A stretch of 64,000 nt of DNA from Octopus sinensis (lineage: Eukaryota): NCBI RefSeq assembly GCF_006345805.1, contig NC_043003.1, forward strand, positions 68,758,001 through 68,822,000, read 5' to 3'. Below, in pieces: positions 3,526-62,483 of this stretch. The notes below the pieces were generated by a model. That model saw only the letters and a program-made list of their open reading frames with translations. It did no database searches and was not told where the DNA came from. The stretch's first letter is position 1. Every line of letters starts with the position of its first letter. The position numbers were made by a program, and so were the translations under genes.

Positions 3526-5014
3526 GTTACAGCAGGCGCCTTTTGAGTAACATTGGAGAAATTGATGATCTGTATTTTTTCTCTCTTTTTCATCTTAGGC
3601 TGTCTATGGAGAATTAGAGTAAATAGCTTTCTTTTATTCCTCACTAAGTTTTATCACCTTCAGTAAGAGAGCAGGAGTATCGGATCTTTTCTATATGGCT
3701 GTTTAAATATTTGGTGTATTGACGTAATTTTCCATGCTGAAACTCAGGAGAGAATTCACTTTTTCCAGAAATTTATGTTTTAAAAGTTACAGAGGTTTAA
3801 AATTAAATCATTTTCACCCAGTCAGAAAACAGGATTTGGAAGTTGTCATTTCAGGTATGATGGCAACTGTTGTCAACAGTAAACAAATGAAATATTGGAG
3901 GAATTCTGCTTTATGCACGCCATATAACCCCTCATAATTATTTTACATTTTGGGGGATTTTCAGAACATTTTCGCGAATTTGTATTCTATACATGAGAAT
4001 TCATACGATTATGCAAACATGTAAAACTATTTGGGGGTACGTGATTCAAAACCTATTATTTTCAGCACATCTCACAAACACACTATACCACGTATTTTAA
4101 TCATTTAATAAACGAAAAATGACCACGTGTATTAACAGCTTAGTAACAGATTAGATTTTTACTATGGAAACACGTACCTATATGTTTGTGGCTTTCTATT
4201 CGCTAAAATATCCCTAAATTTGTAAAATGTAAAGGCTATTAACTCTTTATCTCTTGATTTATTACGAAAATGTCAATGATTACTTTAAAAACTACACCAA
4301 ACACAAAATATGAAATCAAATTGGAATAAAATTTGAAGAAATTGAAAAGTGGCAGCAAAACGGAAATGATCCGAAATATTCTCTCAATAAAACATAATAA
4401 AACATACCACAAGCTGTTTGATAAGATTAACATAGGCTGAGGGTTAAGGTTTTAAATTACAACACAACAAAGTTTCATATAACGATACATGCTACGAAAC
4501 ATTTAAGAAAGATATAGAAACGTGATGTGAATTTATACAATCGCCTTGTCAATATATATTCACGCCAATCTAACAAAATTACGATACATACAACATAGCA
4601 TGAAAGCTTATACCTAAGCTGTAAACACAGAACATATATGTGTAGTACTCACGAGATTCAATCTCCAGACGCTACTGCCTGGCAGTAAAGAGAAACTCAA
4701 TTATTAAAATATTATTATATTGTTATTCAGCAGCTTTATTTTATCAATATGCCGATGATAATTAAACAATGTTTTCCTTTCAAATTGCTATGTATTATTT
4801 TAAAACCGTATTGTTCAGATAATCATTATCATTTTGATACACATCACAGGATATCTTACAGATGCTGGTTTTCAAAGAATCTAGAAAATGAATTTCAAAA
4901 ACCCTACCAAGAATCCGTCGATTGCTGACTTCGAACGGTTCACGGTTTGCTGCGATGGTCATTAATTTTCAATGTACCTAAGCAATAAAGATATATATAT
5001 ATATTATATATATA

Positions 5015-5059
<45 letters not shown>

Positions 5060-5076
5060 GAGAGAGAGAGAGAGCA

Positions 5077-5450
5077 ATAAGAAAATGGAGGGGATCAATA
5101 GGTGGTTCATCAACTTTTAGACATTATATTATGTCAATTTATTATTTATTTTCAAAAATGACAATTACAAGAATCTACATACATATATAACATATTATGC
5201 TTTACATATAAAATATATTAATATATAAAGATACCCGTAATTATTAAAATATATCATGCAGGAATATAAATTGTGAAAATATCTTACAGCTGTTTCAGCC
5301 AAGAGGCAAAAATACCTCATTCTACCTTTATTGCTCCAGTAGACTGAAGTAATAAGTAGATGAAATTGAGGTACTTGTGTGTTTCTCTAGGCTTCGTCAG
5401 AGATTTTATAAAGTACTTAAGGTTAAGTTATAAATAAATAGATACACATT
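5077..5450 (-). mobile_element. Penelope-like pLTR fragment carrying a hammerhead, between microsatellites
   Basis: Contains the HHR at 5281-5404; flanked by (TA)n/(GA)n; terminus ATAAGAAAATGGAGG shared with 50115-50129. Confidence 0.6.
5281..5404 (-). ncRNA. Type I hammerhead ribozyme with very long stem II
   Basis: Minus strand: ATCT-CTGACGA-AGCCTAGAG...CTCTTGGCT-GAAA-CAGCTGTA^-AGAT; stem I ATCT/AGAT, palindromic stem III ACAGCTGT, GUA site. Confidence 0.8.
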
Positions 5451-5497
5451 TACATACTTATACATATACATATGCATACATATATAAATATACATAA

Positions 5498-5545
<48 letters not shown>

Positions 5546-6175
5546 TTAAATGTACATACATATTTACATTTATAAGCATAAACAATAATCAATTATTATT
5601 AATAATATTAGATGCATTATATTATTCATATTAGATAAAATATTAACAAAGGTATGAAGAAGTAATAAGAATAGTAATTTTGTATTCTATAAGATATATA
5701 TATATATAGAGAGAGAGAGAGAGGGGGTGAGGGGGAATGAAGGACACAGAAAATCATTGTGGTTAACCAATCGGATTCTGCAACGAATTAAGTTTGTATG
5801 TAGAGACCCCACTTTATACACATACATAAATACACAGAAGCACAAGTTGATATTCCCATACATGCATTCATTCATTCATTCATACATACGTATTCCATAT
5901 TTCTCTCTGGATATTATCCAGGAACTGATTTTATTGCAAGCACTTAACTATTTTCAGAAGAATGAAAATACGATAATCTAATGTGTTAATAGTTTATATA
6001 TCACTTGCCGAGAACCATGTAAGGTGAAGCAGTTCTAGATGAGACGGAAACTGCATCGTTTCGGATTTCAAACGTGACTGCCAATTCAATATACAGTTTA
6101 GTTCTTTCTCGCTTAGCAACGTCAGACATTTTGAACCATTAATCTGATTCAGTAAAGTAGTTGACTATGGAGGAT

Positions 6176-6178
6176 GAC

Positions 6179-6231
<53 letters not shown>

Positions 6232-6297
6232 CGATGATGATGATGATGATGATGATGACGACACCGATGATGATGATGACGACGACGACAACGATGT

Positions 6298-6334
<37 letters not shown>

Positions 6335-6356
6335 AAACATCATCATCATCATCATA
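6176..6356. repeat. (GAT)n/(CAT)n trinucleotide microsatellite
   Basis: Direct reading; explains the poly-D/M/I ORFs. Confidence 0.95.
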
Positions 6357-9169
6357 AGGCGAAGGTAGTGGCTGTGGTGGTGACGGTGATTATGATGATA
6401 ATGTTCATCATCGTCATTATCGTCGTCATCATCATCATCATTTACCTCTTGCTACTCCTCCTTCTCTTCGCCCTCCACCCAATGTCATCTTCGTGCTTTT
6501 GTTCTGAAGACCGTAATTTGTTTCCTTGTTTTTCTAATTATTTTTAATCAACCACACACGCATTTTCCTATTATCACTTTTCCGTTTTCACATTTTTCAA
6601 CGAAATGAAGTTACTTGAAAGCAACTTCTCAATATAAAAATATTTGCTTTCAATTATTTATGATTTAACAGTTCTTTTTCCATAATAAACTTGTTACATA
6701 ATCTCTACAGTAGAAATTGACATGTTTTCTTAATAATGATAGCTTCATTGTATTTCCTTCCAATATTTCCTACACTTTATAGGCTTTCGGTTTTAGAAAC
6801 TGATTAACGACTTTACTTTTGAAAGCAATTTTTATATATGAAAATATTCATTTATCGAAGCATAGCTGTTAAATTTTGTGGATATTAAGATATAAAATTT
6901 TAATGCTATATTCGTTAAAATTTTATGTCTTCTAATAAATCTGCACATTATTAGAGTTAAGTTTTAAATATGTATCTATTATTTTTACAGATTCACCTAA
7001 AACGAATGAATAACGGTTACGTGAGGCGTGTCTAGATTTACTATTTTAAATTTTTATGTATAGCATCATAAAATGTTATAAAATCTGATAGATCATTGCT
7101 CATACATCTCTTACATTTAATCCTAACATTTCAAATAGGGAGTACTTTGAATTAATTACTTCAAATGTAAATTATTTTGAAAGTTTTCGTTTTATTACAA
7201 CGATTACTTCAACTTTTCTCCAGTGGATAAAGAAGAAATTTTGTTGCTGATTTCAAAATGGTTTCGGTTTTTCAGCAATGCTTATAACATTTAACTTTAG
7301 AAAGTTTTAATATTTTACATAATTATAGTTGAAACATTATATATTTTTCTTAATATTTATCCAGTTCATTGGCATTTAATCATTTAACTAGAGTGCCTCC
7401 TATCCGTTCTGCTATGTTTGTGGCACTTTTACAACTAAAACACAACAAACTCTCACAGCGAATGTTATAAAAATATACCAGATAAAACTGGATTATCCCT
7501 TTGATGATCTTGACAACATGCATTAACTGTCATCTAAAATTTTCATCGTTGTTCTAACCATCGTAGCCTTAAAAAATAATAGAAATATTTACAAGGTCCC
7601 ACAATTTTCCTAATAAAAATTCAAAAGTAGCTAACATGTGGCCGAACTATAAATGAAATAATTCCGATGGAATTTGAATGACCTGTTAAAGGTTAATCAT
7701 CATGCTTTATTCATCTCACCAACATCTACCAATTACATTTGATTATACTAGCATTTCTATCAATAAAAGCAAGAAGATCTCTCTTGCCTTCATAGGCAAA
7801 TAAAAAGCTTAAATAGAAAAAAAAAACTGTTTCATGATGTTTGTTCCTCATTGATGTGTGGAATTCTCATTGAAATACAGCTGAGTTAAACTTCATTCTA
7901 AATATATCATTCATTCTGTTCGAGAAAATGATTTCTATATGCTATGTGTGCTTCTATTAACTATTGAAGTAAACATAATTCTTAAAACCACCAATTGGTA
8001 CCCACTGACACGTAAGGTCTAGACTAGAAATATGAACGAATTGTTCTCTAGACATTCACATTTCCAAGTAACATGGTATCGTCGCCGTGATTATGAAGAC
8101 AAATAATTGTGATAACATAATACCAAACTAAATTTGAAAGTTGATATGTTCTCGGTAAACGATAAAAATGAACGAATCACTGAATGGATAAAATCTTATT
8201 ATCTGTCAGTCATTACATTGATGCGAAGATAGATGAAGACAAATATATACTTAACACGAATAGATTTTATGTCAATCGAAAGAAAAAAACACGAACGAGA
8301 GGAGTATCAATTTACGTTATTTGATTCTCTCTGGAGGAAGGTCATAGTAAGAAGGACGTGTCGAAATTAGGATTAGGTATATTTATTTTACTAAATTTCT
8401 TATTAACATACAGAATATATAGTTTTAAATATCCTCGTATTCCTAAAAAGGAACAAAACTTTCAGATGTAATTGTCTGGGAAGTAACTGCATTAAAGCCT
8501 AGACTATGTTTACTCCTATAACACTGAGCAACAAAAAAATAATTGCAATGCTATTTAAACTTTTTCAGTTGATTTAAGGTAATTTTAGGCGCCTGAATCC
8601 GAACCTGACATCGGTTTTCAGACAGCACGTGTAGTTTTTACTTATTCACAGCATCAGATTTTCCAACCAACTGATAATATTGACAAAGTAGTAGGCTATT
8701 TGCTTTCAATTTTCATTCATATACTCATCGTTAAAACAAAAATAAGTGATGATATAAGCAAATGTAAGCTACCTGTTAAATTGCCACACAAGATGAGAAT
8801 TTATTTTACTTTGTTATCACTGTAATTATAGCAAAGTTCTCCTCACAGTAGGCTATTGATATTAGGCTATAGTAAGCCACTCAGACTCCCTTTTCTTGAT
8901 AACTGCTAGTACTGTTAAAATAAAGTACATAAAATAAGAGACCCGGGTTATATGAAAAGTAGTTTAATAGTAAGATTAGTCATTTATTAAAGTGATCCAT
9001 GTTTGAAATTTAAAGATGGGAAAATTTGCTTCGTGATAGCCATAGCTTCAATATATTCTATAATAATTTCAATGATGATTTTTGAGAAATACATTTTGAT
9101 GTTTTACAGTAACATTTACTGTTGATTAATTTCATATTTTAGTTTATTTTGTGAATGACTTTTTGAAAG

Positions 9170-48547: not shown

Positions 48548-48660
48548 TTATTTACATTTGACGGATATTTGTCCTCATCTTGTTTGTCGTTAGCACAACG
48601 TTTCGGCTGATATACCTTCCAGCCTTCATCAGTGACCTGAATAACAACAACAACAACAAC

Positions 48661-48732
<72 letters not shown>

Positions 48733-48951
48733 AATAATAATAACAACAACAACAACTACAACATCGAAAAGTACCTTAGGAATGAAAACCCAGGTTCGAA
48801 ATTTTCCCAAGAAACCTGATGAAAGCTGGAGGGTATATCAGCCGAAACGTTATGTTAACAACAAACATGATGAGGGAAAATATCTGTCGAATGAAATAAT
48901 GTACATAATGTACATAAGACCTCATCCCTTATATATAGAACTGTGTTGAAA
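48548..48951. mobile_element. Hammerhead palindromic element, copy 2
   Basis: Inverted 3' part 48548-48632 joined at CTGATGA to a plus copy truncated just after the tRNA head; HHR cores at 48626-48632(-) and 48816-48822(+). Confidence 0.85.
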
Positions 48952-54574: not shown

Positions 54575-55285
54575 ACAACTAATGTAGGATAAAATTTTTT
54601 CGAAAAAAATTTTAGCAATGGCCAGCATATCAAATAATACTTTTAAAGGTTAAATTTATAAATAACTTACAAAATAAGGGCAAAAGAAAAATTCTAGTGC
54701 CAAATATGCCGAAAAAAAGACAAAATTGTCCATAACCATTATAATTTATGCGTCTCGAAACAAACCGATAGAAATTTTGGCGTTTGACTTTTTCTTTTGC
54801 CCTTATTTTGTAAGTTACTTACAAATTTAACCTTTAAAGGTATATTTTGATATGCTGGCAATTGATAAAATTTTTTTTAGGAAACATTTTATCCAACATT
54901 AGTTGTAAATTTAATAGTGTTCACTTCCGGATTCTCTCAATCTGTGAAAGTTTCTAGATCGAATCACACGTGTCTCGAGATGTGCCGAAGATTTTCTATT
55001 TTGGATATATTTGGGGTACTTAGGTCTGCTCAGGGCCTTAGTGCTTGCTTTTTCCATGGGTATGAGTAAGTATTCCATTTATGTCTTACGTATTTATCGC
55101 TGAAGAGGGGAAGATTCTTATGAATTAACACCGAAATTGGGACCAATACGGTAATAACGGATTTTTTAGAAATTTCTATCGGCATGTTTCGAGACGCATA
55201 AATTATAATGGTTCTTGACAATTTTGTCTTTTTTTCGGCATATTTGGCATTAGAATTTTTCTTTTGCCCTTATTTGGTAAGTTAT
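54575..55285. mobile_element. Non-coding HHR element: 467-bp terminally redundant unit plus inverted copy
   Basis: TTTTTCTTTTGCCCTTATTT.GTAAGTTA at 54789 and 55256; inverted copy at 54575-54777; (TA)n flanks. Confidence 0.75.
55094..55154 (+). ncRNA. Type I hammerhead ribozyme with complete stem III
   Basis: TTATCG-CTGAAGA-GGGG..CACC-GAAA-TTGG GA CCAA-TA^-CGGTAA; 6-bp stem I, ATTGG/CCAAT stem III, AUA site. Confidence 0.8.
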
Positions 55286-56308: not shown

Positions 56309-56353
56309 GTCACCTGAAGATTGTCGATCAAGACAAGAAACGATTGTAGTGGC
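56309..56353 (+). ncRNA. Minimal type I hammerhead ribozyme
   Basis: GTCAC-CTGAAGA-TTGTC GATCAA GACAA-GAAAC GATT GTA^-GTGGC. Confidence 0.75.
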
Positions 56354-59962: not shown

Positions 59963-61097
59963 TGTGTTCAACAAAATATTGGAAACACCGGTTTCTTTTC
60001 AGGTATCATCAGAAAAAAGGTAATTAAAATTCATTAAAATGACAGATCTATCGGACTTCCAAACAGGTCAAATTGTTGGTGTTCGTATGGTAGGCGCTAG
60101 CGTAAAGAAAACACCCGAAATGGTTGGTGTATCAACAAGTACTATCTCGAACGTAATGATAGACTTTGAGAAAGAGGGAAAAACCTCCTTGTCGGAACAA
60201 AACTCCGGAAGAAAACCAAAACTTTCAGGTAGGGACCTCGGATTCCTACGCGAATTGTTAGAGGGGATCACAAAAGTACAGCTCCCAAAATTACTGCAGA
60301 GCTTAATGCCCACCTAGGGAACCCTGTTTCCACAAAAGCTGTTCGCCGAAAGCTGCACAAATCCGGATTTCACGGGAGAGATTCAATCAGAAAACCGCTA
60401 CTTTCAAAAACAAACGTTGCAAATAGTTTATAGTGGAGTAAAAACCTACACAATTGATCCCTAGAGCGGTTTAGAAATGTTTTTTTCTCGGAAGAGTCAT
60501 CCTTTACCTTATTTCCGACCACCAGCCAAGTATACATGTTGAAACAGCCAAAAGAAGCAAATGATCCAGACTGACTTCTTCAAACTGTTAAACATGGAGG
60601 AAGATCTGTGATGATCTGGAAGAGGGCTATATATTAGAAATCCGCCGGCCCAATGGTTTTCTTCCATGAAAGAATTAATAGTCAAGATTATTTAAGCATT
60701 TTATCTGATCAACTTCATCCTACTGTTTGCGGAACTGTTTCCGGAGGGAAACACATCTTTCAGGATGATAATGCCCCAATTCACAAAGCTAAATTTGATA
60801 CTTAATGGCATGAGCAACAATCTACTGAAGTTGAACATCCTATCTGAACACCACAGTCCCGAGATTTCAACATTTATGGTGCATTTTAGAAAAACAAGTA
60901 AGAAGTTGATATCCTCCACAATCATCACTACAAGAACTGGAGACTGTTTTAACTGAAGAATGAACAAAAATACCATTGGAAACAATTCAAACTATGTACG
61001 AGTCCATACCTCATAGAATTCAAGCTGCAATTACTGCCAAAGACGGTCCTACCAAATATCAAAATTAATTTGTTTGAAATTTGAAGGTGTTTCCATT
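59959..61097 (+). mobile_element. Tc1-family transposon, decayed transposase (60039-~61068)
   Basis: MTDLSDFQTGQIVG N-terminus, FSEESSF, TVKHGG, FQDDNAPIH, GPTKY end; TIR piece GGAAACACC/GGTGTTTCC. Confidence 0.9.
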
Positions 61098-61654
61098 CGC
61101 CATGATTGACCGCTAGCTACTAAAGCCTTCTTTTTTTATTCTCTCTGTTTATTTTCTCGTGTTCCTTTCAGTTGAGGAGCGTAGACTAGAAACGTAAAAT
61201 ACTTTCTCACCTTCCCCTGCGTTAAACTAACACACCTGTTTGTTATTTACACACCTGTCTTCGTCTTTTGTAGTTTGTAAATTCTAACTATATATATATA
61301 GGCAACAAGTGAAACATTTTTTTTGCCCATGACACTACATGGACCCTAAGTAAGGCATGTGTGAAATTTGAATGCAATTGGTTGTGTAGTTCTGAAGTTT
61401 TAGGGATTTAAATAAAAAAAAGAAAATTTTTATTCAAAATATTGAAGCTAAGGATAAAATTTAAAATAAAATATTTAGATTTAGAAATAGGAGGGTAGTG
61501 TAGTTCGCTTGAAGCATTCTGTATTGTTTGTAATCAATAAAGTTTTGAATGGTATAACAATGCACTATAATATAGACAATGGGCTATATACCTGTAGTAA
61601 TTTTGTCATCCATAGTCTGATATGATATTTCGGAATAATATTCCTTCTTCAGGT

Positions 61655-62150
61655 CGCTTCCAAGGTATATTGAAAACCAACGGGTATTCTGGATCCATCG
61701 CAATTCAGATTAAGTACCCAAGACGACCAAAGAAGAGAAGGGCTAGACATACAACTAGCCCCTCCGGCCCCTCTCTGAGAGGACACCTCACTAAGAAACG
61801 AACAAGGGACAACATTCAATGTACCCTAACAAACTGTCCCGTCCGCGACACATATTTGTGTCAACGGGTTAATGTTGTGTATAGAATACAATGTAACAAA
61901 TGCAAGAAGTTCTATGTGGGTAGCACAACAAGACCGTTATACGTCCGCATCAAAGAACATCTGAACACGAGAGCCTCCTCCTTCAGAAAATATCTAGACA
62001 GATTCCGAAATACGACAAAAACATAACAGTCACAATTGAGGCCAATAGAAGAAATTTGGGTAATTTAAGAATTAAGGAAGCTATACTCATACACACTCTA
62101 GGACCCCAAATTAACAACAGGCTAGAGGTTGGTAATCAGTATATTATTTA
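61655..62150 (+). pseudogene. Penelope GIY-YIG endonuclease (frameshifted)
   Basis: C..CP...C..NVVYRIQCNKCKKFYVGSTTRPLYVRIKEH, then in another frame LRIKEAILIHTLGPQINNR. Confidence 0.9.
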
Positions 62151-62446
62151 GATACGTCTGGATGTGTGTAGGTTCATTTTTGATAATATTCTGATCTGTA
62201 GCTTATAACAAAAAAAACAATAGAAGAGAAGAGAAAAAAGGAAACTGCACGTATAATACGTAACTTAGGAGCAGCGCTACGGATGTACCAGCACACACGA
62301 GATTGAGACATGCTCGACCTCACACACTTCTCATGAGGAATTCCGGAAGGAGCATCGTGAGACCACTGCTGAGACGCTTCCAAAAAAATGAAAATAAAAA
62401 GGAAAAGCCGTTGGAAAACCGATTATAGCAGCGATTCCATCTAAGA

Positions 62447-62483
62447 ATATCTGAAGAAGGAATATTATTCTGAAATATCATAT
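62447..62483 (+). ncRNA. Minimal type I hammerhead in Penelope pLTR
   Basis: ATAT-CTGAAGA-A-GGAAT ATT ATTC(T/C)-GAAA-TATC^-ATAT; the inverted copy at 61617-61652 has the perfect GGAAT/ATTCC stem. Confidence 0.75.

Follow-up and report, generated by a model that had tools for sequence, protein, structure and literature searches.

A hammerhead motif with a 97-nt stem II in a dispersed, probably Penelope-derived repeat of Octopus sinensis

A hammerhead ribozyme whose stem II forms a long folded arm poses two questions, namely what kind of element it belongs to and whether the arm has a function of its own. Such a motif lies on the minus strand of the 64,000-nucleotide stretch of the Octopus sinensis genome analysed here (contig NC_043003.1, positions 68,758,001 to 68,822,000; hereafter the window). 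A family that has many copies and whose large arm can be removed offers a direct handle on what hammerheads do for Penelope-like elements.

The hammerhead motif and its extended stem II

The first-pass annotation of this DNA had reported a minus-strand hammerhead with an intact core at positions 5281..5404 of the window, and this is borne out by our analysis. The core has the form CUGANGA ... GAAA ... UH with an A15.1-U16.1 pair and consists of CUGACGA (C3-A9) at 5394..5400 and GAAA (G12-A15.1) at 5293..5296, neither of which contains a variant among the 40 of 67 variant rows listed for the copies described below. Three helices surround the core and helix I is open, as is characteristic of type I hammerheads. 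Stem I comprises 4 bp, formed by ATCT (5404-5401, pair probability 0.63-0.69) and AGAT (5284-5281), exactly as originally proposed. The palindromic stem III was also read correctly: ACAGCUGU at 5293-5286 is an exact 8-nt palindrome, in keeping with the palindromic helix III of Penelope-type hammerheads, and forms either 2 bp with an AGCU loop in the monomer or an 8-bp self-complementary duplex between two copies (5286..5293). The GUA triplet ends at A5285, and the predicted cleavage site, which from the hammerhead consensus we take to lie after A17, falls between 5285 and 5284. Stem II starts from a 4-bp base, and its pair next to the core is A10.1-U11.1, without a bulge after A9, rather than the usual G10.1-C11.1; since a Penelope-linked motif from shrimp has the same A-U arrangement, the octopus motif is still compatible with the variant group that has a small helix III.

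What sets this motif apart is stem II itself, which occupies 97 nt (5297..5393) and contains six helices with 34 bp, whereas the descriptor of Penelope-type hammerheads allows helix II only 3-7 bp and a loop of 3-10 nt. Large natural insertions in other hammerhead stems are known, the discontinuous mammalian motif being one example. All the nested helices that had been named in the arm exist when the 34 pairs are checked singly, with three small corrections: the distal helix CTTCAGT/ACTGGAG has 6 bp and a 4-nt loop rather than 7 bp, because a seventh pair would leave a loop of 2 nt; the AGTACCTCA/TGAGGTATT helix is longer than described, reaching 10 bp; and the TCTAC/GTAGA helix faces competition from a shifted register (pair probabilities of about 0.4 vs 0.55). 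The proximal part of the arm (H1-H3, 18 bp) pairs 5393-5367 with 5297-5319, and the distal part (H4-H6, 16 bp) pairs 5360-5344 with 5321-5339 around the loop at 5343-5340. Folded alone, the arm reaches -32.7 kcal/mol, compared with -17.5 +/- 3.0 kcal/mol in 1000 shuffled sequences (z -5.0), none of which folded as well; a 201-nt region folds with z -3.45 (1 of 200 shuffles), and the opposite strand of the arm folds too (z -3.9). The longest unbroken helix of the arm measures 10 bp and its distal hairpin of 67 nt contains 26 pairs; none of the miRNA families compared with the arm matched it.

It had been suggested that the motif may escape standard searches on account of its arm. Rfam produced no match at the gathering score anywhere in the 64-kb window and no hammerhead among the 12 matches at E<=10 in 4500-6000, so the motif is indeed missed; arm length, however, is not established as the reason, because at the gathering score Rfam also misses nine further hammerhead-like motifs of the window, which have only 14-26 nt between the core halves and show that short arms are the norm here. 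A loose hammerhead descriptor produced 4 matches in the real window and none in 100 shuffled windows. A second long-arm candidate at +35999 was rejected as chance-like (z 0.22), and the presence of such a match in the real window means that the descriptor alone is no proof; only the motif at 5281..5404 has an exact palindrome among the four matches.

In the minimum free energy (MFE) structure of the monomer, the CUG of the core is bound, with a probability of 0.83, to the CAG of stem III, and the active fold lies 4.9 kcal/mol higher, with a probability of 0.0002. The homoduplex of the palindrome contributes -11.1 kcal/mol, such that, as a rough sum, two open chains joined by the duplex reach -76.5 kcal/mol vs -74.0 kcal/mol for two MFE monomers. 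The motif is thus predicted by these folding models to be inactive as a monomer and active as a palindrome-paired dimer. The same logic, off as a monomer and on as a dimer, has been described for Penelope hammerheads (PMC4209133, PMC6765202).

A dispersed repeat family and the variation among its copies

The motif is located near the 5' end of a dispersed repeat of about 360 bp, similar to a solo pseudo-LTR (5075..5436, minus strand, ends approximate). Neither this setting nor the predicted need for a dimer had been noted in the first-pass annotation. The stretch was present in 20 of the 24 sequencing runs listed, from 10 studies with four organism labels (best share 0.42). For 4 of these 24 runs, one per organism label, contigs were compared over 366 bases (5075-5440) at 80% likeness, which yielded 1275, 1901, 662 and 33 matching contigs, respectively. 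Up to 84 different contigs carry the same alternative letter at one place, which identifies a high-copy repeat; the ratio of summed depth to single-contig depth suggests hundreds of copies, a measure that is no true copy number. The family is therefore multi-copy and heterogeneous in sequence, as are Penelope-type hammerhead families, and it is represented once in the 64-kb window. The arm is shared among the copies: 11 of the 32 listed contigs span it completely, six of these without gaps and with 14-31 other letters, and 4 of the 32 cover the complete ribozyme, both strands of stem I included.

Loose contig ends turn into microsatellite-like sequence at 5076 (22 contigs of run X3) and at 5436 (15 contigs of run X3), and it is these ends that delimit the unit of about 360 bp. 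In the window, the repeat is flanked at its 3' end by a (TC)n/(TA)n microsatellite (4991..5074) and at its 5' end by TA/TG-rich microsatellite sequence (5437..5542). The 3' microsatellite is bracketed by two occurrences of TTATTGCT on the minus strand (5079-5072 and 4987-4980), which resemble a short duplication. Among the 15 joints listed, four connect opposite strands, each in one contig and all in X3, and none is head-to-tail, although a microsatellite between units would hide such a joint.

Some copies depart from the window copy in the arm or in the linker. Copies in which the arm is different or shortened are indicated by the joints 5303-5409 and 5305-5386. Loose ends at 5300 in runs X1 and X10 keep the 3' half of the core and then continue into different sequence (at least 98 nt in X10), which suggests a second subfamily with other sequence in place of the arm past 5300 but with the 3' core retained; the X1 and X10 ends differ from one another at several letters beside the base of stem II. 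Several joints within 5143-5282 come from copies in which the linker that separates the ribozyme from the 3' block of the repeat is shortened or replaced, and one such copy, in X8 (37 letters), retains an acceptor-like end.

The majority letters of the family outline a candidate intron of 107 nt downstream of the ribozyme (5153..5259, minus strand), with a GTATGT donor at 5259-5254 and a TTTTAG acceptor ending at 5153. The relevant letters are strongly preferred among copies (5258 T, 96-98%; 5254 T, 90-97%; 5154 A, 99%; 5152 T, 98-100%), and the window copy has lost both donor and acceptor. Another word resembling a donor, GTAAG from 5287 onwards, extends over the predicted cut site into the 3' strand of stem I (5281..5284). 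A donor and an acceptor of this strength are expected by chance in 135 nt of the same composition with P of about 0.10 and 0.21, respectively, no spliced contig or joint was seen in the four runs compared, X10 included, and the X10 contigs at 5143 contain the unspliced acceptor. With such chance levels and no spliced contig, the intron is a candidate only; it would fit the 5'UTR intron known from some Penelope pseudo-LTRs, examples of which are the D. virilis Penelope and Chlamys-3 (PMC8557442, PMC2377424). The depth of X10 relative to the DNA runs is reduced over 5153-5256 and upstream of 5387 (X10/X3 ratio 0.04-0.23 and 0.12-0.17, the latter for the first two bins, vs 0.6-2.3 in the flanking parts). 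This pattern would match the candidate intron together with a transcription start inside the arm, and we treat it as a lead rather than evidence because X10 provides 33 contigs, each with a single depth value, and none of them bridges the gap. None of the runs among the rows listed is recorded as RNA, and the RNA nature of X10 is a guess. Contig ends at 5287/5288 occur in a DNA run as well and are uninformative on cleavage.

Further downstream lies a conserved 3' block (5075..5143, minus strand) with two overlapping ATGs (5124 and 5110). Its part 5075-5134 is free of variants among the rows listed, and the summed DNA depth is highest at 5088-5126. By analogy with the Anolis element described in PMC11167929, the block is a candidate for either the start of an ORF or the region in which reverse transcription starts.

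Variation within the ribozyme was assessed from the 40 listed rows of the 67 (12 X3 places lie outside them), the columns of which cannot be phased. Changes in the arm were counted if they reached at least 3% in at least two DNA runs, which gave 14 common changes and left out rows 5318, 5390 and 5391 (two pair-breaking and one pair-keeping). The covariation that had been suggested as a check of the arm did not appear: none of the 14 common changes among these 40 rows is two-sided. In the same rows, two changes keep a pair (5312, G.U to G-C; 5332, U-A to U.G), one creates a pair (5333), five break pairs and six others fall on unpaired positions; the wobble-type changes fit the minus strand. The five pair-breaking changes compare with 7.7 expected (P 0.08), and all of them are in the distal helices, among them 5354 U>A, which disrupts helix H5 in about 80% of the depth. 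In the rows listed, only 1 of 36 proximal paired positions varies, its pair being kept, compared with 6 of 32 distal ones and with 6 of 29 unpaired positions (proximal vs unpaired, Fisher P 0.04, post hoc). With proximal pairs nearly constant and breaks confined to the distal helices, the arm appears to be held at its base and loose at its tip.

The surroundings of the core are similarly quiet, with no row in 5283-5305 or 5392-5403 among the 40 of 67 listed. For the 27 nt of the core, none of the 34 listed X3 places is affected vs about 2.5 expected by our own arithmetic, a difference that is weak when taken alone. Stem I is weakened in many copies: 5282 A>U breaks one of its pairs in 36-45% of the DNA depth and 5404 A>C breaks the outer pair in 21-30%. 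The window copy has the minority letter at 12 places among the rows listed, four of which touch the splice-like signals.

Nature of the repeat and of its arm

The repeat is most likely a solo pseudo-LTR or a short non-autonomous derivative of a Penelope-like retrotransposon. With the Penelope hammerheads described by Cervera and De la Pena in 2014 (PMC4209133), the octopus motif shares the type I arrangement, the CUGANGA/GAAA core, the 4-bp helix I and the palindromic helix III, and with their elements the dispersed solo copies and AT-rich flanks. Among the motifs shown in that study, the one from the shrimp Marsupenaeus japonicus has the identical AGCC/GGCU base of stem II, the A-U closing pair and A17, the Drosophila willistoni motif has the AGCU loop in common, and Saccoglossus is among the examples of a small palindromic helix III in Fig. 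S3 (PMC4209133). Furthermore, the microsatellite flanks, the four opposite-strand joints and the deepest cover at the 3' end fit insertion of the Penelope type, the majority-letter donor and acceptor count in favour of a pseudo-LTR, and the octopus genome is home to Penelope-like elements encoding a reverse transcriptase (RT) plus a GIY-YIG endonuclease and carrying other hammerheads, which we likewise count for a Penelope origin. Against such an origin, no RT or GIY-YIG domain was found near the repeat in any of the 192 frames of at least 58 aa, and the window copy has no adjacent ORF for RT plus GIY-YIG. On balance, membership of a Penelope element is likely.

The difference from the published set concerns stem II. 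By our own reading of Fig. S3, stem II has at most 23 nt in the 56 Penelope-type motifs collected there, the published descriptor allows 7 bp and a 10-nt loop for helix II, i.e., 24 nt, and cephalopods are absent from the set (PMC4209133), whereas the octopus stem II has 97 nt in six helices. In the literature searched, composed mostly of papers outside subscription journals, neither an octopus hammerhead family nor a Penelope-type stem II of this size is reported. The closest paper, Lunse et al. 2017 (RNA Biol), may contain such motifs in its alignments and supplements. We regard the octopus motif as structurally new within a known ribozyme class: it would be a Penelope hammerhead of the dimer type, and its stem II is about four times as long as in the described examples read here. 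Descriptor searches that stop at a stem II of about 24 nt can overlook whole families of this kind, and animal hammerheads may thus be undercounted.

Comparison with better-characterized systems reveals further parallels and differences. The candidate intron of the octopus repeat lies downstream of the ribozyme, whereas in D. virilis the 5' strand of helix I marks the end of the intron (PMC4209133). In Anolis Poseidon (PAc), the hammerhead is likewise off alone, the 3' boundary of the element is shortly downstream and the targets are AT-rich (PMC11167929), traits that the octopus repeat shares, the off state by prediction; the PAc ORF starts within stem II and the cut falls 26 nt after the start codon, unlike in the octopus repeat, where the first candidate ATGs are located about 160-175 nt downstream of the cut. 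According to the same study, the Anolis Penelope hammerhead cuts only with the protein of the element, and reverse transcription begins in a stem-loop downstream of the hammerhead (PMC11167929). More generally, the hammerheads of Penelope-like elements are described as cutting poorly in vitro, one of them needing the protein of its element, and insertion as proceeding in vitro without any need for cutting (PMC4209133, PMC11167929). Metazoan non-LTR retrozymes (PMC7229834; bioRxiv 10.64898/2026.07.22.740005) resemble the octopus repeat in being short, non-coding, of similar length and of type I with a weak helix III; the octopus repeat differs from them in its long stem II and in that the canonical contacts between loop 1 and loop 2 are not recognisable. 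Type I hammerheads of mycoviruses (PMC13725137) also have a helix II longer than usual and no clear loop-loop contact; their 'long helix II' has 6-8 bp, however, and with a long helix III they work as monomers.

Weighing these observations, we assign a probability of about 0.55 to the reading in which the motif is a type I hammerhead of the Penelope-like-element class, carried by a solo pseudo-LTR or short non-autonomous repeat, with an arm that is a tolerated extension of loop II. Counting against this reading are the lack of two-sided changes among the 14 common ones in the arm, the disruption of H5 in most of the depth, the weakened stem I of many copies and the A-U pair at 10.1-11.1. The near-constancy of the proximal 18 bp and of the 5' strand 5356-5393 among the rows listed would also be expected of an arm at work, one that docks the RT-endonuclease or a host protein and thereby switches the ribozyme on, or that forms part of an internal promoter, or both; a transcription start inside stem II would then leave only the downstream pseudo-LTR of an element to yield the complete ribozyme. 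The protein-dependent cutting and the downstream stem-loop start of reverse transcription in Anolis (PMC11167929) provide a precedent, Penelope promoters are described as internal to the pseudo-LTR (PMC2377424), and the apparent exchange of the arm beyond 5300 in a second subfamily, with the 3' core kept, points in the same direction. Putative protein binding by the arm is plausible in itself, yet the distal tip tolerates common pair-breaking changes and the nine other motifs of the window manage with 14-26 nt, so that we consider a working arm possible but rather unlikely. An arm retained as a substrate for A-to-I editing by ADAR or for small RNAs is far less probable still. Hyper-editing is very high in octopus and lizard Penelope elements are heavily edited (PMC5625713), and the distal hairpin with its 26 pairs would suit such a role, but the longest unbroken helix has only 10 bp, the arm matches no miRNA family, and incidental editing would be no proof of the arm being retained for this purpose. 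The arm has a single common A-to-G change on the minus strand, at 5332; this change occurs in each of the three DNA-type runs, at 24-38%, and is thus genomic rather than due to editing, leaving the suggestion of A-to-I editing made in the first-pass annotation unsupported.

Two other explanations concern the repeat as a whole. It could be the monomer of a non-LTR retrozyme, the tandem arrays of which would be cut into circles of about 360 nt compacted by the arm: the unit size is similar to that of the retrozymes of mussel and axolotl (about 300-390 bp; PMC7229834), the repeat is non-coding and of type I, and solo monomers are common among retrozymes, which themselves appear to derive from pseudo-LTRs (bioRxiv 10.64898/2026.07.22.740005). 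On the other hand, no head-to-tail joint was found among the 15 listed, with the reservation on microsatellites noted above, the window has a single copy, and the splice-like signals and opposite-strand joints suit a pseudo-LTR better; we regard this origin as improbable. The sceptical view that there is no ribozyme at all, but a chance core around a fold-back inverted repeat in a DNA element, can invoke the folding of the opposite strand and the one chance-like descriptor match in the real window. It would have to account for the full core, the exact palindrome, stems I and II in register, the 0 of 100 shuffled windows, the close resemblance to published Penelope hammerheads (PMC4209133) and wobble-type changes that fit the minus strand, and we give it hardly any credence.

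In the preferred reading, a Penelope-class hammerhead with a tolerated arm, the long stem II would already have been present in the mobile parent and amplified along with it. A lone RNA copy would switch the ribozyme off by mispairing the core CUG with the CAG of stem III, and two copies, in a tandem element or in two transcripts, would join through the 8-nt palindrome into a double hammerhead that cuts after A5285, possibly aided by the protein of the element. The arm most likely has no function to perform by itself; folding back is all that is asked of it, so that stem II stays closed at its base, which is why the proximal 18 bp would be held while the tip drifts. The window copy, single and with its splice signals lost, is probably dormant. 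Should the arm be dispensable, the family would be a natural example of loop II tolerance, of modest importance.

In a bolder scenario, loop II of the hammerhead would have been turned into a regulatory module in an octopus Penelope-type lineage. The arm of 97 nt would then be a putative dock that makes the ribozyme dependent on the RT-endonuclease and at the same time the site of an internal transcription start; transcripts from the upstream pseudo-LTR, lacking the CUGANGA half, would escape cutting, and the downstream pseudo-LTR would yield a full, protein-gated ribozyme. With the donor-like word lying over the cut site, a transcript would be either cut or spliced, and exchangeable arms of the subfamilies would decide which protein activates which ribozyme. 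That all these parts hold jointly seems to us a long shot.

Other contents of the window and searches for relatives

The window is AT-rich and full of microsatellites. None of its 192 frames has a host-gene domain above the Pfam cut-off, and Pfam finds only remnants of transposases and of GIY-YIG endonucleases. The former belong to the Tc1/mariner group and are located at -15080-14293, -20032-19820 and +60233-60430 (DDE_3, HTH_Tnp_Tc3_2, HTH_48). The latter define a Penelope-like remnant at 61616-62475: its GIY-YIG frame (+61616-62023; PF01541, E 9e-6) resembles three longer proteins, two from Octopus bimaculoides and one with an RT domain. The resemblance to proteins that combine RT and GIY-YIG extends to 62260, and a minimal hammerhead is found at +62451 with an inverted second copy at -61652.

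This remnant is enclosed by one of the three inverted pairs that six of the nine short-armed motifs form. In a further inverted pair (-56248-56214 and +56314-56348), stem II measures 16 nt, the 8 nt of stem III are nearly palindromic and the triplet is GUA. Four minimal motifs have a stem II of 21 nt (+1756-1787, -48632-48601, +48816-48847 and -51443-51412), three of them with an AACGTT palindrome after the core, and the copies at 48601 and 48816 are an inverted pair. A single hammerhead-like motif at +55100-55136 has a stem II region of 26 nt and an AATT palindrome.

Searches for relatives of the octopus motif outside the genome were unproductive. The core pattern has no match in prokaryote genomes; the 18-nt core pattern matched 8 loci in viral contigs and the 21-position pattern 26 loci in metagenome contigs, with similarity beyond the pattern in none of them. 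In five of the 26 metagenome loci, a word similar to CUGANGA occurs no more than 300 nt upstream, which we take as chance, and two viral loci matching the long-arm pattern have no hammerhead fold and look coding. Two metagenome contigs (L018 and L024), which come from different data sets, are identical over 105 letters that surround the 18-nt pattern; immediately upstream lies a tandem unit of about 30 nt, and the contigs are unrelated to the octopus motif.

Closer to the ribozyme, CTGTAAGATAT, the 11 letters around the cut site, recurs on the minus strand at about 4862-4851, some 430 nt downstream. This second CTGTAAGATAT lies inside a 75-codon frame starting at 4962, has no core upstream and is possibly due to chance. 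About 750 nt upstream of the ribozyme, a long (GAT)n-type repeat (6161-6547) opens a poly-Asp frame that is probably non-coding.
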